A stretch of DNA of 64,000 bases from an uncultured Bacteroidales bacterium (lineage in GTDB: Bacteria > Bacteroidota > Bacteroidia > Bacteroidales > UBA932), in NCBI GenBank assembly GCA_934726455.1, contig CAKVDS010000001.1, positions 79,452 through 143,451 on the forward strand. The letters are read 5' to 3'. The notes under the pieces were generated by a model. The model worked only from the letters and a program-made list of their open reading frames with translations. It did no database searches and was not told the DNA's origin. A program made the position numbers and the translations under genes. Shown one piece after another: positions 1,272-60,856 of the stretch; the stretch's first letter is position 1, and each line of letters opens with the position of its first letter.

Positions 1272-3014
1272 TCAATGCACTTCAATCTGGGTGTCCATTC
1301 TCGCCAGCACTTTGGCTTCTGTGCAGTCTTTGAGGCGGCCGAGAAGCGCACTTTCTTCTGAAGAACCGTAGAACATCTCAAGGACTTTTTCCATCATCGT
1401 CTGCGGACGCGGATAACCGCAGACGCTCCAGTTGCCGAGATCCGGATCCCCGGCTATTGAAGCTGCGTAATTTACAGCGTCCTCGAGTGTCCCTATTTCA
1501 TCGGCCAGTTCGATAGGCAAGGCGTCGGCCCCGGTCCACACGCGGCCCTGCGCTATCTCGTCCACTCTTGATTTAGAGATGGAGCGGTTCTCGGAAACGA
1601 TGGAGACGAAGCGGTCATATATGGTCTCGATGGATCTTGTCATATAGTTGAACTCGTTCTGGTCGAACGGCCTCATGAGACCGAACATGTCCCCGTGCTT
1701 GTGCGAGTTTACGCTCTCAACTCCTACATGAAGTACATCCTTGGCTGTCTTGGAGAAGTCCGGAATCATGCCGAACACTCCTATGGAGCCGGTGAGTGTG
1801 GTGGCGTCAGTGAAAATGACATTGCTCCCGTTTGAAATCCAGTATCCGCCTGAAGCTGCATATTCACCGTATGAAGCCACGACCGGTTTGTCCTTTTGCA
1901 AAAGGTCGAGCTCATTTTTAATCTTCTCTGAAGCGAGTACGCTCCCGCCTGGGGAATTCACGCGGAGAACAACCGCCTTGACGGTTGAATCGGCCCTGAC
2001 TCCTGCTATTATGGATGCGAACCTGTCTCCGGCAACGGCTGTCTTCTGACTTCCGTCAATGATTTCGCCATCGGCATAGATGATGGCGATCTGCTGTTTG
2101 GGGTTGAACGGCGGCACCAAGTTGGCCACGTAGTCGGCAAACGGGATAAGGCTGACTTCGTCGAAACTGTCCTTTACCGCCAATACGGCCAGCTTGTCTT
2201 CAAGCTCGTTTTTTGTCAGAAGTTCATCCACAAGGCCGCACTCCACGAAATCTTGTGGCAGGTTGAGTTTCAAGTTGTTGATGGCATCGTCAAGAGCCTC
2301 GACGGAGATCTCCCTGCTCTGGGAGATGCCCTCGGCTATGCTCTCCCACATGGAATCCACGACGCGTTGATTCTGCTCCCTGTTTTCCGGACTTGATTTG
2401 GATTTTGTGTACATCTCGCCTGCTGACTTGTATTTCCCGTGTCTTATCAGCTGGACATTGACACCGAGACGGCCGAGAAGGTCGCCAAGGAAAATCATCT
2501 GGCTTGAGACGCCGGTGATAGGGACTGTCCCGCCGATATGTGATGTCATGTAGACCTTGTCGGCCACGGAGGCGAGGTAATACCCTCCGGTGGTCGGAGC
2601 TTCGATATATGACACGACCGGCTTGCCGCTGCTCTCCCTGAAATTCGCGAGGGACTTGCGGATCTCTTCAAGGGATGCGATCCCGCTCGCCGAGCCGTCG
2701 GTTTTGAGATATATGTATTGCACCGCCGGGTCTGATGCCGCAGAGTTGATGGCCTGTACGGCATCCCAGATCCCGATGGTCTGCACGTCTCCGCTTCCGC
2801 TGATGGAGGAGAGAGGGTTGGACTCCTGGCTCTGTTCGCTGAGCACGAACTTGGACATGTCCATCACGAGCACACCTGACTTGGGAAGAACCGGAGTGGC
2901 GCTGCCTGCCGCGAGAAGCGCTCCGAGCATTCCGAAGCCGAGGAGGAATATCAGCACTCCCATAATGACCAGGCCGCAGATTACGGCCAGAGTCATCTTT
3001 ACAAAATCTTTCAT
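1272..3014 (-). CDS. sppA: Signal peptide peptidase SppA, 67K (two-domain) type
   Basis: N-terminal TM helix and two ClpP/crotonase-like S49 peptidase repeats (VVLRVNSPGGSVLASE, GEYAASGGYWIS). Start trimmed to MKDFVK at 3014. Confidence 0.85.
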   Translation of the reverse strand: MKDFVKMTLAVICGLVIMGVLIFLLGFGMLGALLAAGSATPVLPKSGVLVMDMSKFVLSEQSQESNPLSSISGSGDVQTIGIWDAVQAINSAASDPAVQYIYLKTDGSASGIASLEEIRKSLANFRESSGKPVVSYIEAPTTGGYYLASVADKVYMTSHIGGTVPITGVSSQMIFLGDLLGRLGVNVQLIRHGKYKSAGEMYTKSKSSPENREQNQRVVDSMWESIAEGISQSREISVEALDDAINNLKLNLPQDFVECGLVDELLTKNELEDKLAVLAVKDSFDEVSLIPFADYVANLVPPFNPKQQIAIIYADGEIIDGSQKTAVAGDRFASIIAGVRADSTVKAVVLRVNSPGGSVLASEKIKNELDLLQKDKPVVASYGEYAASGGYWISNGSNVIFTDATTLTGSIGVFGMIPDFSKTAKDVLHVGVESVNSHKHGDMFGLMRPFDQNEFNYMTRSIETIYDRFVSIVSENRSISKSRVDEIAQGRVWTGADALPIELADEIGTLEDAVNYAASIAGDPDLGNWSVCGYPRPQTMMEKVLEMFYGSSEESALLGRLKDCTEAKVLARMDTQIEVH

Positions 3015-3068
3015 CGTGTAAATAAGTGTAAATTTTGTCAAAAGTAGTAAATTCGCGAGATAAAACAA

Positions 3069-4433
3069 ATGTCTATGGCACAGAAACCTTCAATCCCAAA
3101 GGGTACCAGGGATTTCGGGCAGCGCGAGATGGCTGCGCGGAACTATATTTTCGACACCATCCGTGCAGTGTTCCGCACATACGGTTATTCACAGATAGAG
3201 ACTCCGGCTATGGAGAATCTCTCCACCCTGCTCGGCAAATATGGTGAGGAGGGGGACAAGCTGCTTTTCCGGATACTCAATTCGGGAGACGCTTTCTCCG
3301 GTGTGGACTTCGACAAACCGCTCACTCCCCAGGTGTGTGAGAAAGGACTCCGTTACGACCTGACGGTGCCGTTCGCCCGTTATGTGGTGCAGCACCGTGA
3401 TGAACTGTCATTCCCGTTCAAGCGTTTCCAGATACAGCCGGTGTGGAGGGCTGACCGTCCGCAGAAAGGACGTTACCGTGAGTTCTACCAGTGTGATGTG
3501 GACGCTATCGGAAGCAAGAGCCAGCTCTGCGAACTTGAACTTGTGCAGATAGTTGACAAGGTGTTTGAGAAACTCGGTGTCCGTGTGCTTCTGAAAATCA
3601 ACAACCGCAAGGTTCTTACCGGTCTGGCCGAAATCTGCGGATTCCCCGACAAGGTGGTGGACATCACCGTGGCCATAGACAAACTCGACAAGATAGGGCT
3701 CGATGCTGTCAAGGAGGAGATGCTCTCAAAGGGGCTCTCGCCAGAGGCCGTGGAGATGCTGGAGCCTGTGCTTACCCTTAGCGGCAGCACGACGGAAAAG
3801 ATCGCCGTGATGCGTTCCATGATGGGTTCTTCTCCGACCGGATTGAAGGGATTGGATGAGCTTGAAGAACTGTTCGGATATGTCGATGCGGCCGGAATCG
3901 GAATCCCTGTCGAGTTGGATCTTTCCCTCGCCCGCGGTCTCAACTATTATACCGGAGCCATATTTGAGGTCAAGGCCCTCGACTGGCAGATCGGAAGTAT
4001 CTGCGGAGGCGGACGTTATGATAATCTTACCGGTATTTTCGGCCTGCCGGACATGTCCGGTGTCGGGATCAGCTTCGGGGCGGATCGCATATACGACGTG
4101 CTCATGGGGCTGGACAAATTCCCGGAGAATCTGCGCAGCAGCACCACCGTGCTCTTTGCCAACATGGGGCCGGAAGAGTTGAAGTACATTCTTCCTGTGG
4201 CTTCGGCACTGCGCTCGGAGGGTATCGCCGCCGAAATCTATCCTGATCAGGCAAAACTCAAGAAGCAGTTTGAATACGCAGACCGCAAGTTTATCCCTTT
4301 CATCTCAATCAACGGCGGCTCCGAGGCTGAAGCCGGAGTGGTTAACATCAAGAACCTCTCTTCCGGCGAGCAGAAGAGCTTCCCGAAAGACGACATCAAT
4401 GGCATGAGGGAGTTTCTGCTGCCAGGGGTATAA
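3069..4433 (+). CDS. hisS: Histidine--tRNA ligase
   Basis: PKGTRDF motif, class II aaRS motifs ([12 protein letters not shown]-like, QCDVD) and a C-terminal anticodon-binding domain. Confidence 0.93.
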
Positions 4434-4528
4434 CCGTTGCTTCTGGCACGTGAGCTTGCAACGCGGTGACAGACAGTTGGATATCGGTGGCGGATAAGTG
4501 CTTGATATCCAACGAGAAGATAATGTAG

Positions 4529-4560
4529 CTCCTCCTTGGACAAGAGGAGGATAAGTTTTT
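4529..4560 (+). terminator. Candidate hisS terminator
   Basis: TCCTCC..GGAGGA hairpin followed by TAAGTTTTT. A 10-bp-stem hairpin, GTTGGATATC-N18-GATATCCAAC, lies at 4476-4513. Confidence 0.5.
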
Positions 4561-4734
4561 AAAAGGCTTATTCTCAGGCTGTTATCTGCCACCGGCTTCG
4601 TGTTTCTCATTCGTCCCCTATTTCAACTGGGAGTGGGTTATCTACTGCGCTTTGTTTTTTGCAATTCTATAGGTTTCTCAATGTTGTGTATTCGTACGGT
4701 TCTTAGGGCCTTTTGAAAACCGGTTAGGTTTCTG

Positions 4735-4742
4735 TATATTTG
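4735..4742 (+). promoter_or_regulatory. Bacteroidetes-type -7 box (TAnnTTTG) upstream of the methyltransferase
   Basis: TATATTTG sits within GTATATTTGCCAA. The same extended string precedes the ATPase gene at 28449. Confidence 0.5.
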
Positions 4743-4807
4743 CCAAGACTAGAAGGATGTACCGAAGCATTGGGGATACGATTGTAATATCATAAAAGAC
4801 AAAGGCG

Positions 4808-5935
4808 ATGGCTAACAGTAGTTTGAGTGCGGCAAAAACCACAAAGAATGATGAATTCTACACGCAATACGCTGACATACAAAAGGAGGTAAACGCCTAT
4901 ATTGAATATGACAAGGATGTATTTCGTGACAAGACCGTCCTGTTGCCTTGTGATGACCCGGAGCAGAGCAATTTCACAAAGTTCTTCGCTCAGAATTTTG
5001 AGCGTTATGGATTGAAGAGATTGATATCTACGAGTTATGCAAGAAACAGCAAAAAGTCCAAGTATGGCATCGACACTTACCCCTCTTTGTTTGAAGAGGA
5101 ATCTCCGATTTATGATGCGGACAAGTCCAAAAGCCACGGCAGGATATTCATTCTTGACAGGACTGATGTGACTGGAGACGGACGTGTTGACTACGATGAT
5201 TTGACTTGGGAATATCTTGATGGTGACGGTGATTTCCGTTCTGATGAGGTCAAGCATCTAAGGGACGAGGCTGATGTGATAGTAACCAACCCTCCGTTCA
5301 GTATGTTCAGAGAGTTTCTTGCATGGGTAGTTGAGGCTCATAAGAAGTTCCTTGTAATCGGGAATATGAATGCCATAACCTATAAGGAGGTGTTCCCGTT
5401 GATTAGGGAGAACAAGATATGGCTGGGTTATGGCTTTAGTCATGGAAATGCCTATTTTGGTATTCCTGAAAGTGCATCCACGGAATATGCTTCCGGTGTA
5501 TATGATGAAAATACAAAGTTGGTTAAATTTCGTAATTGCTGCTGGTTCACCAATCTTGACCACGGCAGAAGACACCAGCCTTTGTCGTTGATGACGATGG
5601 CGGACAATCTGAAATTCAGTCGGCATAAGGAAATACGTGGCAAGGAGGCTTACGACCACTATGACAATTATGATGCGATAGAAGTGCCGTATACCGATGC
5701 GATTCCAAGCGACTACACTGAGTGTCTTGGGGTTCCTGTCAGTTTCTTGGATAAGTATTGCCCTTTTCAGTACAAAATCATAGGTGCGACAGAAAGTGAG
5801 GGGAAAGGATTTTCAGCAGGATTGTGGAATCCGGAAAGTGGAATATCACAGGCGACCATTAGGGGAAACAAGGTTTATAAACGGCTGTTTATCAAGAAGT
5901 TAGCAGAAGAGAGAGAGAGAGAGAGAGAGCTATAG
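4808..5935 (+). CDS. N6-adenine DNA methyltransferase, EcoRI-methylase-like family
   Basis: N-terminal NDEFYTQ motif, catalytic VTNPPFS (NPPF motif IV) and C-terminal GVPVSFLDKYCP..IIG...YKRLFIKK module. The 3' end is encoded by an AG repeat (EREREREL*). Confidence 0.85.
   Translation: MANSSLSAAKTTKNDEFYTQYADIQKEVNAYIEYDKDVFRDKTVLLPCDDPEQSNFTKFFAQNFERYGLKRLISTSYARNSKKSKYGIDTYPSLFEEESPIYDADKSKSHGRIFILDRTDVTGDGRVDYDDLTWEYLDGDGDFRSDEVKHLRDEADVIVTNPPFSMFREFLAWVVEAHKKFLVIGNMNAITYKEVFPLIRENKIWLGYGFSHGNAYFGIPESASTEYASGVYDENTKLVKFRNCCWFTNLDHGRRHQPLSLMTMADNLKFSRHKEIRGKEAYDHYDNYDAIEVPYTDAIPSDYTECLGVPVSFLDKYCPFQYKIIGATESEGKGFSAGLWNPESGISQATIRGNKVYKRLFIKKLAEEREREREL
5908..5929. repeat. (AG)11 dinucleotide simple-sequence repeat at the 3' end of the methyltransferase ORF
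   Basis: Read directly: 22 nt of uninterrupted AG, ending 4 nt before the stop codon. Confidence 0.95.
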
Positions 5936-5939
5936 AAGA

Positions 5940-6218
5940 ATGATCGATGCTATTGTAAAAATGGGCATCGCACCGGAAGAGATAACGTATTACTCCGGAA
6001 TCATGGGTGTCCCGATATCATTTCTTGACAAGTACTGTCCGGAGCAGTTTGAGATAATCGGACAAACACAAGGAGATTCAGGAAAGGAACTTGGCTTGAA
6101 ACCGTTTGACAGAGCCTTGAGAGAATTGAATAGCGGATTGAGAGATGGGCAATTGTATTATATGGAGAATGGTTTACCAATAAAACCTTATGCACGAGTG
6201 TTGATAAGAAAAATCTAA
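5940..6218 (+). CDS. Stand-alone second copy of the methyltransferase C-terminal module (gene remnant or SSR-switchable extension)
   Basis: GIMGVPISFLDKYCPEQFEIIG....YARVLIRKI parallels residues ~300-365 of the upstream methyltransferase. It starts 4 nt after the methyltransferase stop and ends 6 nt before the next gene. Confidence 0.5.
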   Translation: MIDAIVKMGIAPEEITYYSGIMGVPISFLDKYCPEQFEIIGQTQGDSGKELGLKPFDRALRELNSGLRDGQLYYMENGLPIKPYARVLIRKI

Positions 6219-6224
6219 GTTAAT

Positions 6225-7388
6225 ATGAAAACCACATTGCGCACAGACATAACGATAGCCGACATCTGTAAGGATTTCGACTATAATGAATATGAGGGGA
6301 AAGGACTTTTCGGGCTCGCTGGCAATCTTGTTATCCAACCCGAATATCAACGGAACTATATCTATGCTGACGGCAAGAAAGATGTGGCTGTCATTCAATC
6401 CGTTTTGAATGGTTATCCTCTTGGGCTGATATATTTTAATACGGTCGGTGATGGAAAATTCGAAGTGTTGGATGGTCAGCAGAGAATAACATCCTTGGGT
6501 CGTTTCCTTATTGATAAATTTCCTATAACTGGCAGTAATGGCATACCTCAGTATTTCTCCAGTCTCCCTAAAGACAAGCAAGAACTCATCCTTGAAACCA
6601 AACTTCTTATTTATGAGTGTGAGGGCGTGGAGAGTGAGATTAAGGAGTGGTTCAGAACCATCAATATCGCAGGCATTCCTCTGAATGAGCAGGAACTTCT
6701 GAATGCAATCTATTCTGGCCCTTTTGTGACATTATGCAAAGAAGAATTCAGTAATAGCCAGAACTCCCACATTCAAAAGTGGAGCAGTTATCTTAATGGC
6801 GACCCAAAACGTCAGGATTTTCTTGCCACGGCTCTTGATTGGGTCAGCAAAGGAAAGGTCGAAGACTATATGGGCCGACACCGTTACGATACTGGCATCA
6901 GCGAAATTAAAACCTATTTCAATACTGTCATTGATTGGGTTTCAAGAGTGTTCAAGGATGTGGAGAATGAAATGAAAGGGCTTCCTTGGGGGCAGTATTA
7001 TGAGAAGTACCATACTAATCCGTATTCTTCGGAATATGTGTCGGGACGTGTCCATGCATTGTATGCAGATCCTTATGTCAAGAACCGCAAGGGAATATTC
7101 GAGTTCATCCTTGGTGGGGAGACGGAGACAAGGCTTCTTGATGTCCGTGTTTTTGATGAAGCGACCAAAAGGAGCGTGTATGACAATCAAACCGCTAAAG
7201 CTAAAGAAGATGGAGTCTCCAACTGCCCATTATGTGCCATAGGGCCTGGTTCCAACCGTACACGAATTTACAAGCTGAATGAAATGGATGCCGACCACGT
7301 TACCGCTTGGTCAAAGAACGGAGAGACCGACATCAGCAATTGCCAAATGCTCTGCAAGAGCCACAACAGGGCGAAAGGCAACAGGTAG
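6225..7388 (+). CDS. DUF262 (ParB/GmrS-like) domain fused to a C-terminal HNH nuclease
   Basis: IQPEYQRNY and [13 protein letters not shown] motifs are typical of DUF262. The C-terminus has CPLC...[32 protein letters not shown] (HNH). Confidence 0.85.
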
Positions 7389-7389
7389 T

Positions 7390-7443
7390 ATGCACTTTTT
7401 TTTGTGCAGTTTTTGCTAAAATATGCACTTTTTTTTGTGCAGT
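7390..7443. repeat. Two perfect 21-nt direct repeats, each a TGCAC-T8-GTGCA hairpin
   Basis: ATGCACTTTTTTTTGTGCAGT occurs at 7390-7410 and 7423-7443. Confidence 0.9.
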
Positions 7444-7447
7444 GTAT

Positions 7448-7455
7448 TATATTTG
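7448..7455 (+). promoter_or_regulatory. -7 box TATATTTG for the ATPase gene
   Basis: Matches TAnnTTTG about 20 nt upstream of ATG 7475. Confidence 0.55.
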
Positions 7456-7474
7456 CAAAAAATGATGACTTTTG

Positions 7475-8653
7475 ATGGAAGGCTTATACAATACGTTTCG
7501 CATTAAACTTGCACTCACGCCGATGGCTTATCTGCGCAGTTTCCACGAGCAGGTGAATTGGAAGAGCCGTCTGGTCTGCATCATGGGACAGAAAGGTGTC
7601 GGGAAGTCCACTATGATTCTTCAACATATCAAGAAGTATGACAACCCTGAGGAGACGCTGTACGTGACAGCGGACAATATGTATTTTGCCGGGCACACTC
7701 TCTATGAACTTGCCGGGATGTTTTTCGCTCAAGGCGGGAAGCGCTTGTACATAGATGAGATACATAAGTACAAGGGATGGTCAACAGAAATAAAAAACAT
7801 CTACGATGATTTTCCTACGCTTTGTGTGGTATATTCCGGGAGCAGCCTGTTGGCACTGAAGAGAGGAAACAAAGCGGACCTCAGCAGACGCAGCGTCCCT
7901 TATGAAATGCCTGGACTTTCTTTCAGGGAATATCTTAATATCCGCAACGGATGGAGTCTTAAGACCTCTGCTCTTGAAGAAATCCTGCATGGGAAAGTCG
8001 ATTTTCCTGAAGGAGAACATCGTCCCCTTAAATATTACAAAGAATATTGCAGGCATGGATTTTACCCTTTTTTCAAAGAGGGGGATGCCGAAATACGTCT
8101 GCAGAATGCGATTCTGGCCACTGTGGAAGATGATATCCCGGACTATGCGGATATGACCGTCGCGTCAGCTGTAAAGCTTAAGAAGCTGATGTATATTCTG
8201 GCAAAGAGTGTCCCGTTCAAACCCAGTAATGACACGCTTGGACGTGACCTCGGGATCAGCCGGAACGTCGTGCCTGATTACATAAGTTATCTCGAAGCAA
8301 CGGGTATGTTCAACGCGCTCCGTGAACCGGGCCATAGCGACAGTCTGTTGGCGAAGACTGAGAAACTGTATTTGGGGAACAGCAATATAGCATATTCATT
8401 GTCGGAGGACGGCATCATTGATGACGGCAATATGCGTGAGACCAATTTTTTGGCCTGGACTAAACAAGTGTGCTCTCCGGTTTCTTCCAAGATATCTGAT
8501 TTCGAGATAGGGGATGTTACATTCGAAGTCGGCGGCAGGAACAAAAAGTCCGATCAGATAAAGGATGCTCGGGTCGGTTATCTTGTCAAAGATAATCTTG
8601 AGTATGCTTCAGGGCGCTCCATCCCTATATGGATGTTCGGCTTTCTATATTGA
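7475..8653 (+). CDS. AAA+ ATPase (AAA_14-type) with DUF4143-like C-terminal domain
   Basis: Walker A GQKGVGKST and Walker B LYIDEIHKY. The C-terminal DFEIG..FEVGGRNKK resembles the DUF4143 nuclease-fold motif. Confidence 0.8.
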   Translation: MEGLYNTFRIKLALTPMAYLRSFHEQVNWKSRLVCIMGQKGVGKSTMILQHIKKYDNPEETLYVTADNMYFAGHTLYELAGMFFAQGGKRLYIDEIHKYKGWSTEIKNIYDDFPTLCVVYSGSSLLALKRGNKADLSRRSVPYEMPGLSFREYLNIRNGWSLKTSALEEILHGKVDFPEGEHRPLKYYKEYCRHGFYPFFKEGDAEIRLQNAILATVEDDIPDYADMTVASAVKLKKLMYILAKSVPFKPSNDTLGRDLGISRNVVPDYISYLEATGMFNALREPGHSDSLLAKTEKLYLGNSNIAYSLSEDGIIDDGNMRETNFLAWTKQVCSPVSSKISDFEIGDVTFEVGGRNKKSDQIKDARVGYLVKDNLEYASGRSIPIWMFGFLY

Positions 8654-58234: not shown

Positions 58235-60856
58235 ATGCTACGAAAACTATTGACGCTGGCCTGCGTGCCACTGGTGCTGCTGGGATGCAACAAACTGAAC
58301 GACCTGTCGACCAAGGTCGATGACATCGATTCCCGTCTGGGTAAACTTGAGACGCTCTGCGCCCAGATGAACAAGGACATCACCGCCCTGCAGAAAGCGG
58401 TCAAAGCCTTGGAGGACAAAGACTATGTGACTTCCGTGGAGCCGATCACAGAAGACGGCAAGGAGATCGGCTACCGCATCAACTTCACCAAGAGCGGAAG
58501 CATCACCATTTACCACGGCAAAGACGGGGCCGACGGACTGACCCCGGTCATAAGCGTATCCCAGGACACGGACGGGCTGTACTACTGGACAATTGATGGG
58601 GAATGGCTCCTTGATTCCGGCGGCAACAAGATCAAGGCCTCGGCTACTGACGGCGAGGACGGCATCACCCCTCAGCTCAAGATAGAGGAGGACTGGTGGT
58701 ATATCTCCTACGACGCCGGACAGACCTGGACGAAACTCAGCACCGCCAAAGGCGACAAGGGAGACTCGATGTTCAGTGCCGTCACCTACGACAGCCTTTA
58801 CCTCTACCTAACCCTTGCCAACGGCACGAAGCTCACCATCCCGATGTCCTCCCCGATAAGTCTGGAGTTCGACATCAAGGACAACGAGGCCGTCATCTCG
58901 GCAGGCGAGACCATAGTCATCGGATACACTGTCACCGGCTCAACTCAGACGAGCAAGGTTTCAGCCTCCTCCGACGGCAACTATGTAGTGAAAGTCAAGA
59001 GCAGCTCAGCCGACAAGGGCACGATAGAAGTCACAGCCCCGACCCCGTACGCCGATGGCTACATCAACGTCATCGCCGACAACGGCAACGGCTACACCCG
59101 CCTGCACGTCATCAGCTTCAGCGAGCGCAAGATCAACTTCCCGTCCGGCCTCGAATACAGCGTCGCCACCGAGGGCGGCACGGTGGAGATCCCGTTCACG
59201 GTCAATTTCGACTACACGGCCAAGGTCGCGGCCTCAGATGCCGGATGGCTCAGCATCGCGCAGACCAAGGCCGCAGAAAGGGCTGCCAGCCTCTCCGTGG
59301 TCGTGGGCAAGAACGACGGCGATGCCTCCCGCAGCGGCAAGGTGTATATCTATCCGCTCAACGGCAACGGTGAAGCCTGCCGGGAAATCGTGATCAACCA
59401 GGCCTCGGCCTACTTCAGCATCAGCAAGACCCTTGTCGTGGCCCCGGCCGAGGGCGGCGAGTTCTCGGTGGACGTCAGATCATCCCGCGGGCTCACTCTG
59501 AAGCCGGGAGAGGGCGACTGGTTCACTGCCACAGCCGAAGCCGACAGCAAGGAGACGGGCAAATACAGCCTCAAGGTCAAAGTGAACGAGAACAACGGCA
59601 CCGAGCGCCGCAGCAGCACCGTTGAACTTTACTCCGATGGTGCCCCGGCAACGCGGCTCGGCAGTCTCGAAGTCCTGCAGTCCAGCAAGACCGCAGATGA
59701 ACTCAAGGACATGGTCTTCGTCGGCAAAGCCGCCTTCGCCAACGACTTCACCATCTACCTCCCTCTCGCCGGCGAGATCGACTGCTACATAGACTGGGGC
59801 GACGGCACGGTGGAGCATGTGGAGAAGTATCTGCCTGAAGGCTACTGGGGAGGAGATAACGTTTTCCACAAGTACAATGTGGATAAGGGCACTGAATATG
59901 AGATCAGGATTTCGGGGAAAGTGACCAGCTTGCGTTCTGCATCGACGTCGGGATTGCAAGCGCGCTATCTCTCCTCTATTACCGCTGTTAGACAGTGGGG
60001 AAGCACTGGATTGAGGAACATGAGTAATGCCTTTCGTGGCTACAGCGCTCTTAAGAGCATCCCGGCTGATGAGACCGGGGCCTTTGCTGAGGTGACTTAT
60101 TTTGGGGCAGCTTTCTCTTCATGCACAGCTTTGGAGACTGTGCCGGTCGGACTGTTCAAGTATTGTGGAAATGTGACCTCGTTCGATTCTTGTTTCAGTA
60201 ATTGCAGTTCGTTGACTTCCATTCCTGAAGGTCTGTTTTTAGGCTGTAGGAATGTGACCTCGTTCAGTTCATGCTTCAGTAATTGCAGTTCATTGACTTC
60301 CATTCCTGAGGGGCTGTTTTCGGAGTGCAAGAGTGTTACAGACTTCGGCTCATGTTTCTATGGATGCAGTTCGTTGACTTCCATTCCCGAGGGACTATTT
60401 TGGGGATGCACGGAGATGGAGAATGTTTGGTCTTTATTCAGTTATTGTGAAAATATGCTATCTATTCCTGCAAAGTTATTTGCAGGCAACCCGAAGATAA
60501 CAGCATTTAATAGCACATTTGATAATTGCAACAAGCTGACGAATATACCGGAAGGATTATTTGACAGCTGTCCGAATGTCGACAGTTTCAATAAGACTTT
60601 CCAACAGTGTCAAAGCTTAAGATCAGTACCGGTTTCCCTCTTTGACAACAATCGTAAGGTTACAGATTTTATGTGTACTTTCAGTGGTTGCTATATGGTT
60701 GTCGGTGAATCGCCGTACACAGTAATTAACGGAGTGAAATACCATCTGTACGAAAGAGCGGACAATCCGGATGAATTTATAGCACCGACTTCGTTCGGTG
60801 CCTGCTTCTCGAGCTTCTCGGATTATGGACAAATGCCTTCGGAATGGCGATGGTAG
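58235..60856 (+). CDS. Large surface lipoprotein: DUF4988-like coiled-coil/GxDG N-terminus, BACON-like Ig repeats, C-terminal BspA/DUF285-type leucine-rich repeats
   Basis: Lipobox VLLGC. Coiled coil LGKLETLCAQMNKDITALQKAVKALE followed by GKDGADG. Three GG..E(I/V)..V-type BACON-like segments. At least 8 repeats of the form F..C.SLTSIPEGLF. Confidence 0.7.
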   Translation: MLRKLLTLACVPLVLLGCNKLNDLSTKVDDIDSRLGKLETLCAQMNKDITALQKAVKALEDKDYVTSVEPITEDGKEIGYRINFTKSGSITIYHGKDGADGLTPVISVSQDTDGLYYWTIDGEWLLDSGGNKIKASATDGEDGITPQLKIEEDWWYISYDAGQTWTKLSTAKGDKGDSMFSAVTYDSLYLYLTLANGTKLTIPMSSPISLEFDIKDNEAVISAGETIVIGYTVTGSTQTSKVSASSDGNYVVKVKSSSADKGTIEVTAPTPYADGYINVIADNGNGYTRLHVISFSERKINFPSGLEYSVATEGGTVEIPFTVNFDYTAKVAASDAGWLSIAQTKAAERAASLSVVVGKNDGDASRSGKVYIYPLNGNGEACREIVINQASAYFSISKTLVVAPAEGGEFSVDVRSSRGLTLKPGEGDWFTATAEADSKETGKYSLKVKVNENNGTERRSSTVELYSDGAPATRLGSLEVLQSSKTADELKDMVFVGKAAFANDFTIYLPLAGEIDCYIDWGDGTVEHVEKYLPEGYWGGDNVFHKYNVDKGTEYEIRISGKVTSLRSASTSGLQARYLSSITAVRQWGSTGLRNMSNAFRGYSALKSIPADETGAFAEVTYFGAAFSSCTALETVPVGLFKYCGNVTSFDSCFSNCSSLTSIPEGLFLGCRNVTSFSSCFSNCSSLTSIPEGLFSECKSVTDFGSCFYGCSSLTSIPEGLFWGCTEMENVWSLFSYCENMLSIPAKLFAGNPKITAFNSTFDNCNKLTNIPEGLFDSCPNVDSFNKTFQQCQSLRSVPVSLFDNNRKVTDFMCTFSGCYMVVGESPYTVINGVKYHLYERADNPDEFIAPTSFGACFSSFSDYGQMPSEWRW
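60168..60410. repeat. Three tandem 81-nt (27-aa) LRR-coding repeats; the first two are near-identical at DNA level
   Basis: ATGTGACCTCGTTC...AATTGCAGTTC(G/A)TTGACTTCCATTCCTGA recurs with an 81-nt period (60171, 60252, 60333). Confidence 0.8.

Follow-up and report, generated by a model that had tools for sequence, protein, structure and literature searches.

A dinucleotide repeat at the 3' end of a DNA methyltransferase gene in gut Bacteroidales is very probably a random switch between two enzyme forms

The locus

This work deals with a restriction-modification locus in a stretch of 64,000 nucleotides (hereafter, the window) from an uncultured Bacteroidales bacterium (assembly GCA_934726455.1, contig CAKVDS010000001.1, positions 79,452 to 143,451 of the forward strand). 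At this locus, a DNA methyltransferase gene ends in a perfect dinucleotide repeat, (AG)11, and is followed by a small open reading frame (ORF) and a nuclease gene. In general terms, the following features can be differentiated, all of them on the + strand of the window: (i) the methyltransferase gene (4808-5935); (ii) the repeat (5908-5929); (iii) the small ORF (5940-6218); and (iv) the nuclease gene (6225-7388). An earlier sequence-only reading of this DNA had proposed that changes in repeat length toggle between a short and a long enzyme or, alternatively, that the small ORF is a scar of cassette replacement.

The 375-aa product of 4808-5935, which is the short form of the enzyme and corresponds to the n = 11 state, matches the Pfam family PF13651 (EcoRI_methylase) along profile positions 2-344 of 345 (E 3.5e-121, 405 bits against a cut-off of 26.4) and the PADLOC model MTase_II (E 1.3e-86). 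Its catalytic motif, NPPF (residues 161-164), is invariant in the alignment. By the full profile match and this motif, the predicted product is an EcoRI-family N6-adenine DNA methyltransferase. The AlphaFold2 model of the short form has a mean predicted local distance difference test score (pLDDT) of 92.9 and a predicted template modelling score (pTM) of 0.90. The Pfam profile is completed by a C-terminal module ("module a") which spans residues 304-364 (5717-5899, + strand; ECLGVPVSFLDKYCPFQYKIIG-ATESEGKGFSAGLWNPESGISQATIRGNKV-YKRLFIKK) and, in the model, consists of a strand (307-310), a helix (311-316), a second strand (322-327), a variable stretch and a last strand (359-364). The tail encoded by the tract appears in the same model as a helix of lower confidence.

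The small ORF encodes a second module of the same kind. Its 92 aa match PF13651 at positions 275-344 (E 3.4e-13) and, when aligned, modules 1 and 2 share 36% identity over 75 columns (E 4e-12), in agreement with the description of 5940-6218 in the sequence-only reading as a second and divergent copy of the C-terminal module. Module 2 ("type b"; 6000-6218, + strand; IMGVPISFLDKYCPEQFEIIG-QTQGDSGKELGLKPFDRALRELNSGLRDGQLYYMENGLPIKP-YARVLIRKI, stop codon TAA at 6216-6218) is of the type that forms the usual C-terminus in most single-module members of the family. It is preceded in its own frame, which is open from 5904, by a 23-aa linker (5931-5999, + strand; YRRMIDAIVKMGIAPEEITYYSG) that is conserved in multi-module relatives, including those without a repeat.

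The partner nuclease gene (6225-7388, + strand) begins 6 nt past the stop codon of module 2 and encodes a 387-aa protein with DUF262 (GmrSD_N) and HNH domains (Pfam PF03235 and PF01844), which is matched along its full length by the PADLOC model REase_II (E 3.1e-82). The nuclease gene comes after the methyltransferase gene in all related loci, and the gene pair is kept across phyla. With two adjacent genes that both match curated PADLOC models, the locus is, by the gene-pair criterion, a predicted Type II restriction-modification system. No methyltransferase-nuclease fusion was found among the eight long (460-688 aa) relatives scanned.

Upstream of the methyltransferase gene, 66 nt 5' of its start, lies TATATTTG (4735-4742, + strand), a match to TAnnTTTG, the -7 promoter consensus of Bacteroidetes; it is the likely promoter of the operon. 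On the + strand within 4400-7600, TAnnTTTG occurs only at 4735 and 7448. Terminator-like hairpins are present past the nuclease gene (7391-7441, + strand), where they close the putative operon, and past hisS (4530-4551); no terminator-like site was found within 4808-6224. Due to the single promoter-like motif upstream and the lack of an internal terminator, it is likely that methyltransferase, module 2 and nuclease belong to one operon. Regarding gene spacing, nine single-module loci have -1 to 11 nt between methyltransferase stop and nuclease start, and another five have 46-105 nt. In repeat-bearing loci the nuclease starts 6-9 nt past module 2, but 220-390 nt past the short stop.

Tract, reading frames and predicted products

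The perfect (AG)11 tract at 5908-5929, detected with Tandem Repeats Finder, is the sole dinucleotide array in the window, and (AG)7 or longer appeared in 0 of 100 dinucleotide-preserving shuffles, so that none is expected by chance. It encodes the tail EREREREL of the first ORF, whose product ends in ...KKLAEEREREREL, with TAG at 5933-5935. Four bases past this TAG, the ATG at 5940 opens the 92-aa ORF, whose end is at 6218. Both non-fusing frames have their stop codons (TAG at 5933-5935 and TGA at 5941-5943) within 5933-5943 of the + strand, with the ATG at 5940 between them.

Rebuilding the gene in silico with n = 3 to 18 AG units gave three kinds of product: (i) n mod 3 = 0 results in the in-frame fusion ...ESYRRMIDAIVKMG..., of 466-472 aa for n = 6, 9, 12 or 15 and of 466-474 aa over all rebuilds, with the predicted junction peptide ...EERERESYRRMIDAIVK; (ii) n mod 3 = 2 (5, 8, 11, 14; the window has n = 11) results in a protein that ends in ...REL; and (iii) n mod 3 = 1 (7, 10, 13) results in a protein that ends in ...AIEE, with TGA at 5941-5943. 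This recomputation reproduces the frame arithmetic of the sequence-only reading, according to which adding one AG unit or removing two fuses the ORFs while removing one gives ...AIEE with its stop at 5941-5943; the repeat search and the ORF ends likewise confirm its placement of (AG)11 at the end of the methyltransferase gene. Since the tract sits past the complete methyltransferase domain, slippage never truncates the enzyme and alters only what comes after it.

Natural variation of tract length

The same locus was located in other samples by exact protein look-up, and the predicted products for n = 6 to 15 were also looked up exactly; among the latter, n = 9 and n = 11 were found. An ENA scaffold (L001/L002) has n = 11, as in the window, and a Logan contig from another sample (L003) has (AG)9, with the gene called as a single 468-aa protein. 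Further alleles within the 90% cluster of these two products are on backbones that differ slightly, with n = 6, 8 and 9 on one backbone and n = 8 and n = 7 on two others. The DNA of 15 loci confirmed the tract lengths, all of them at one position. Neighbouring clusters add n = 5 and 7, together with further copies of 6, 8 and 9, and a pattern scan of metagenomes added n = 10. The series from n = 5 to 11 is complete, because look-ups, clusters and metagenome scan together supply every length.

The samples with the locus include human gut metagenomes. The nearest named genome is the metagenome-assembled genome "Bacteroidales bacterium UBA6431" (L018), with approximately 94% nucleotide identity over the locus and n = 8. 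An exact search with the flank pattern returned 0 matches in the GTDB genome collection, where the representative genome has a one-base difference in the left flank, and no called gene identical to the 92-aa ORF was on record.

Between the window and L003, 7877 aligned bp contain 0 mismatches and one 4-nt gap, which is the tract. Similarly, L011 differs from L012 and L013 over 10.8 kb by 1 mismatch and one 6-nt gap at the tract. Since these near-identical pairs differ essentially only there, the tract evolves far faster than ordinary sites.

Length changes alter the protein product, both among the in-silico products and among the natural called proteins, which cover all three frames. Among the contigs listed for the AG lineages, approximately 25 are fused, 28 end in ...REL or ...LSKND, and 13 end in ...AIEE or ...AIKE; all three states are common. 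The fused frame predicted in the sequence-only reading does exist in nature, as single called genes of 466-472 aa, and the repeat number that it proposed to compare in related strains is indeed variable, from n = 5 to 11 at the same site.

Selection on module 2 and the conserved junction

Between the window and L012 (lineage B, approximately 92% nucleotide identity), linker and module 2 have accumulated 8.5 synonymous and 2.5 non-synonymous changes, that is, a ratio of non-synonymous to synonymous substitution rates (dN/dS) of 0.07 (binomial p 3e-4). For module 2, dN/dS is 0.06-0.07; for the linker and the start of module 2 compared with L004, it is 0.11; and for the methyltransferase core (window versus lineage B), it is 0.03. 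A comparison of L004 with L016, which have another type of module 2, gave 4 synonymous and 0 non-synonymous changes.

When genomes were scanned with a module a alignment, 306 relatives were detected, and the best 80 of them were retained. Most of these 80 are single-module proteins from many phyla which end in module a, with the nuclease gene directly next. Because single-module relatives in many phyla end with it, module a can be regarded as a normal, functional C-terminus. A repeat plus a second module are present in ten Bacteroidales genomes among the same 80, where the junction contains one of the following sequences: (i) a poly-G run of G7-G8 (L016, L021, L034, L039 and L051), interrupted in one further locus, L023 (GGGGTGGGG); (ii) (AG)5-8 (L017-L019); or (iii) a pentanucleotide repeat, (GAGAA)n (L020). 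Homologous loci that keep the second module and lack the tract were not encountered among them: every two-module Bacteroidales relative has a junction repeat, even if the G run of L023 is interrupted once.

In 12 of 12 repeat-bearing related loci, the frame of module 2 is intact and open back to the repeat, while the other two frames stop 2-15 nt past it. The second modules of these loci end with the usual last strand of the family, Y-x-R-[IV]-L-I-R-K, and belong to at least 9 types with unrelated variable loops, always behind a constant module a. Close relatives within the poly-G lineages again show three frames, one fused (...LGGGYQRM...) and two ending in ...LGGGIKE and ...LGGVSKND. Three kinds of repeat at one junction, together with conserved stops, linker and downstream frame, argue for selection for switching and not for a scar.

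With respect to its origin, the arrangement probably arose by insertion of module a and the linker ahead of a resident module. Translation of module 2 as a stand-alone protein, through re-initiation at ATG 5940, was considered as a general mechanism and rejected, as a nearby ATG is present in some lineages only and elsewhere the first ATG lies 30-80 nt further on.

In L004-L010, a cassette with 92-95% protein identity and another type of module 2 is part of an element that also encodes two serine recombinases and a Phage_CRI replication protein; it is inserted beside a different type of hisS, and the repeat is at the same site. The presence of the cassette on this recombinase/Phage_CRI element indicates that the whole switch moves horizontally. 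A contig labelled Ruminococcus bicirculans (L017) has a Bacteroidales-type cassette, with 90% identity in module a and (AG)5, and is probably either mis-binned or the product of a recent transfer.

Within the methyltransferase itself, the central region (approximately 5426-5551; residues 207-248) is mosaic, with three unrelated sequence types on near-identical backbones (P0004, P0008 and P0012). This region could be a second recognition element swapped by recombination. As for the nuclease, it is 91-97% identical among close lineages with differing types of module 2. Its residues 312-344, just before the HNH domain, contain a cluster of substitutions common to the loci with module type d (L004 and L016), which could reflect either lineage history or co-variation with the module.

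Relatives in Firmicutes and multi-module proteins without repeat

Clostridia-type relatives (L055, L056, L064, L084, L089 and L094) carry (ACAG)12-14, (AG)10-20 or (TG)10 at approximately 4700-5500 in each, and in P0163 the repeat has a 5-nt unit. In these Firmicutes loci the repeat sits within the variable loop of the first module, ahead of its last strand, and each frame leads to a different end: (i) the first continues to ...RITPYFRIIIRRKM and stops, completing module 1; (ii) the second leads to a linker and a complete module a; and (iii) the third runs through approximately 95 codons that overlap module a and then into a complete third module. Natural proteins represent the first state (L064, L089 and L056), the second (L055, L094, L084 and P0192) and the third (P0163). 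The overlapping frame is stop-free in 9 of 9 three-module loci versus 5 of 47 single-module loci (Fisher p 2.6e-7), and the third module has a dN/dS of 0.05-0.10.

Here, because a shift at the repeat strips module 1 of its last strand, the newly added module must supply the end of the fold. This layout supports the view that the long form encoded in the window would likewise use its last module and not module a. Programmed ribosomal frameshifting at the junction between module a and module 3 of the Firmicutes loci was also considered and dropped in view of the upstream repeat and the open overlapping frame.

Other relatives, without any repeat, have two to four in-frame modules joined by the same kind of linker (P0166, P0242 and P0262). 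In P0203, module a is fused directly to another module; in L055, the loss of one A in the A5 run at the stop of module a would create a fusion of module a to the next module such as that found in P0203.

Proposed mechanism

According to the proposed mechanism, (AG)n would serve the methyltransferase gene as a contingency repeat, hypermutable and placed at its 3' end, where slipped-strand mispairing changes n. With n mod 3 = 2 or 1, translation would stop within 15 nt of the tract and yield an enzyme of 373-379 aa with module a last; with n mod 3 = 0, it would cross the 23-aa linker into a second complete module and yield an enzyme of 466-472 aa. In the long form, the last module would take the structural place of module a. 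The variability of the loop within the module points to a role in DNA recognition; hence, a module swap would change the methylated DNA sequence, as in the Type IIG enzymes of Helicobacter pylori described below.

These proposals differ in strength. The locus very probably works as a random genetic switch with two enzyme forms: the toggle put forward in the sequence-only reading finds support, as far as genotype and selection are concerned, in length variation on near-identical backgrounds, in the three frames found in nature and in purifying selection. That the short and long forms would methylate different sequences is the most likely consequence, considering the H. pylori analogy and the fact that the module loop is the most variable part of the family. 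Taken as a whole, a contingency switch by repeat length which changes both module and specificity is the best explanation, and we hold it to be somewhat more probable than all others together.

Concerning the nuclease, one with fixed specificity would make switching lethal and, in consequence, either specificity lies elsewhere than in the modules or it is the methyltransferase that directs the nuclease to its target. The nuclease probably lacks a matching specificity and may rely on the methyltransferase for its target, which would make switching survivable; such a methyltransferase-guided nuclease may act as in Type III systems. A more far-reaching proposal is that a single repeat selects among two (Bacteroidales) or three (Firmicutes) recognition modules and that the DUF262-HNH nuclease follows the form of the methyltransferase, so that each locus would hold 2-3 complete specificities and methylomes; this is put forward tentatively, as something that may well turn out otherwise.

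Several observations weigh against the explanation preferred here. All alleles are consensus sequences of metagenome assemblies, and the comparisons are between contigs. Frame usage in nature is roughly even, an outcome also expected from weakly selected drift. Across phyla, the nuclease keeps 62-70% identity regardless of the module of the methyltransferase, which fits modules that do not set specificity equally well. The AlphaFold2 model of the long form, built with 120 close homologues, has pLDDT values below 50 past residue 255, and the placement of the modules in it is unreadable. A PDB sequence search with the fused protein as query returned one spurious match only (E 0.09), and a Foldseek search of PDB with the short-form model returned nothing better than E 0.06, to generic Rossmann methyltransferases. 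The structure models thus neither back nor oppose the displacement of module a by module 2. Finally, neither a recognition sequence for any member of this methyltransferase subfamily nor a characterised close relative was found in the literature searched.

The genotypic states may, in addition, be not fully exclusive, because (AG)n tracts can be bypassed during expression, as described at low level for a mod fragment of Mycoplasma bovis (bioRxiv 10.64898/2026.04.01.715767).

Alternative explanations

The best-surviving alternative is a conventional ON/OFF switch, in which one form is active and the other disabled, so that protection or epigenetic marking would be lost (for instance, because the 93-aa extension blocks the short form, or the reverse). 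ON/OFF control is the classical outcome of repeat-driven methyltransferase phase variation (PMC5909438 and PMC7383803), and the long form has no confident AlphaFold2 fold. Nevertheless, the short form is a complete Pfam domain modelled with high confidence, and it is predicted to be active, as many single-module relatives have no C-terminus other than module a. Moreover, purifying selection acts on linker and module 2, which end in a normal last strand; a purely disruptive tail would need none of this. With the methyltransferase switched off, an active nuclease next to it would kill the cell, unless that nuclease needs the methyltransferase in order to act. Therefore, this alternative is considered unlikely, if still worth keeping in mind.

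According to a second alternative, the repeat chiefly tunes the expression of the nuclease: the fused frame would restore translational coupling, while the short frames would leave approximately 290 nt poorly translated and lower restriction. The spacing described above is in line with it, as the 6-9 nt gap past module 2 resembles that of most single-module operons and contrasts with the 220-390 nt past the short stop; the same can be said of the one promoter motif and the lack of an internal terminator. However, tuning leaves unexplained the purifying selection on module 2 at the protein level and the maintenance of at least 9 module types. Besides, in the window ATG 5940 is 4 nt past one stop and overlaps the other, so that re-initiation could keep the coupling. 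Tuning as the chief role is improbable. Yet an effect on nuclease expression could coexist with the module switch preferred here, as it is in the fused frame alone that ribosomes would come as close as 6-9 nt to the start of the nuclease gene.

Less probable still is the scar proposed in the sequence-only reading, that is, an inert remnant of a displaced older methyltransferase next to a neutral microsatellite in effectively non-coding DNA. It is true that the two modules are just 36% identical, and that central and C-terminal segments are exchangeable in this mosaic family, so that cassette replacement does occur. But the supposed remnant has a dN/dS of 0.06-0.11, and the purifying selection on linker and module 2 (0.07, p 3e-4) contradicts an inert scar. 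Its frame is also open to the repeat in all 12 lineages, with stops in the other two frames. Three unrelated types of repeat occupy the same junction, and the linker is conserved, also in multi-module proteins without a repeat.

Lastly, assembly or sequencing artefacts of a low-complexity tract, conceivable in comparisons made up of short-read metagenome assemblies, can practically be set aside as the source of the length differences, since these are always whole AG units, the same alleles turn up repeatedly in independent contigs and samples (a single allele in as many as 11 contigs), reads are much longer than the tracts of 10-22 nt, and the poly-G lineages show the same pattern.

Other features of the window

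Directly after the operon lies the gene of an AAA_14/DUF4143 ATPase (7472-8653), a match to the PADLOC candidate defence family PDC-S01 (E 1.7e-22); the TAnnTTTG at 7448 is this gene's own motif. On the other side, a 3.15-kb segment (1272-4420) with an SppA-like peptidase gene and hisS has the opposite orientation in the sister lineage (L011-L018), at approximately 89% identity, and no convincing inverted repeats were found flanking it. In L012, an extra AAA_14/DUF4143 gene stands beside this SppA-hisS segment. Two further repeats in the window are unrelated to the switch: (i) an 81-nt tandem repeat of approximately 2.6 copies (60170-60401); and (ii) an arginine/aspartate-rich repeat at the 3' end of the polynucleotide phosphorylase gene (715-818).

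Comparison with known systems

The closest precedent is that of two Type IIG enzymes of H. pylori, JHP1272 (Hpy99XIV) and HP1353-HP1354 (HpyAXVI), in which repair of a frameshift in a 3' homopolymer adds a small domain to an enzyme that is complete and active without it (Krebes et al., 2014; PMC3936762). Upon domain addition, the recognition sequence changes from GGWTAA to GGWCNA in JHP1272 and from CRTTRA to CRTCNA in HP1353-1354; the added domain resembles part of the enzyme's own recognition domain, and its authors propose that it displaces the resident one (PMC3936762). As in H. pylori, the repeat in the window lies at the 3' end, past a complete enzyme, and the extension is homologous to the enzyme's own C-terminal region, with both modules at profile positions 275-344. 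The differences are that the H. pylori enzymes are single-chain Type IIG proteins (MmeI-like) with homopolymers, whereas the present system combines a stand-alone PF13651 methyltransferase with a separate DUF262-HNH nuclease. Furthermore, the repeat here is a dinucleotide (poly-G, 4-nt and 5-nt units elsewhere in the family), the linker is conserved, the hosts are gut Bacteroidales, and the change of specificity is deduced by analogy.

In the Type I system NgoAV of Neisseria gonorrhoeae, according to PMC9577141, which cites Adamczyk-Poplawska (2011), a poly-G tract lies between hsdS1 and hsdS2, and the loss of one unit fuses both ORFs; the fusion changes the recognition sequence from GCAN8TGC to GCAN7STCA, and the short and fused forms are both active. 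The resemblance is that a change in the repeat fuses adjacent ORFs which encode successive modules. In NgoAV, however, the repeat belongs to a separate specificity subunit and the truncated form is a half-subunit that dimerises, while in the window the repeat belongs to the methyltransferase and module 2 duplicates module 1.

In classical phasevarions, repeats turn Type III mod and Type I hsdM/hsdS genes ON and OFF (PMC5909438, PMC7383803). These systems share with the present locus a hypermutable repeat inside the methyltransferase gene and length polymorphism between close relatives. Nevertheless, their repeat is 5' or central and the off-frames truncate the protein; here the repeat lies past a complete enzyme, and no frame abolishes it.

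The arrangement is not described in the literature searched on PF13651, on DUF262-HNH proteins beside methyltransferases, and on repeat-driven phase variation in Bacteroidales. In Campylobacter jejuni Cj0031/Cj0032, a tract presumably splits or fuses adjacent restriction-modification ORFs as it does here but, unlike here, only the fused form would be complete. In any case, the class of mechanism is already known from the H. pylori Type IIG enzymes and NgoAV; what is new is the enzyme family, the nuclease, the hosts, the diversity of repeats and the three-frame relative.

Significance

Knowledge of phase-variable methyltransferases comes for the most part from pathogens, among them Haemophilus, Neisseria, Helicobacter, Campylobacter and Mycoplasma, and phase variation in gut Bacteroidales is usually ascribed to DNA inversion. 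The locus in question appears to be a repeat-driven switch in abundant gut commensals, from a methyltransferase family in which members of this kind are not known to have been characterised, and with a design that would swap the last module of the enzyme and never switch the enzyme off. Should the sequences methylated by the two forms differ, genes such as these would be split or merged unpredictably by gene callers and annotation pipelines, and metagenome binning or host-linking by methylation motif would see one strain as two. Under the same condition, a single strain would have two methylomes and two restriction barriers, with effects on phage resistance, gene transfer and, possibly, gene regulation.

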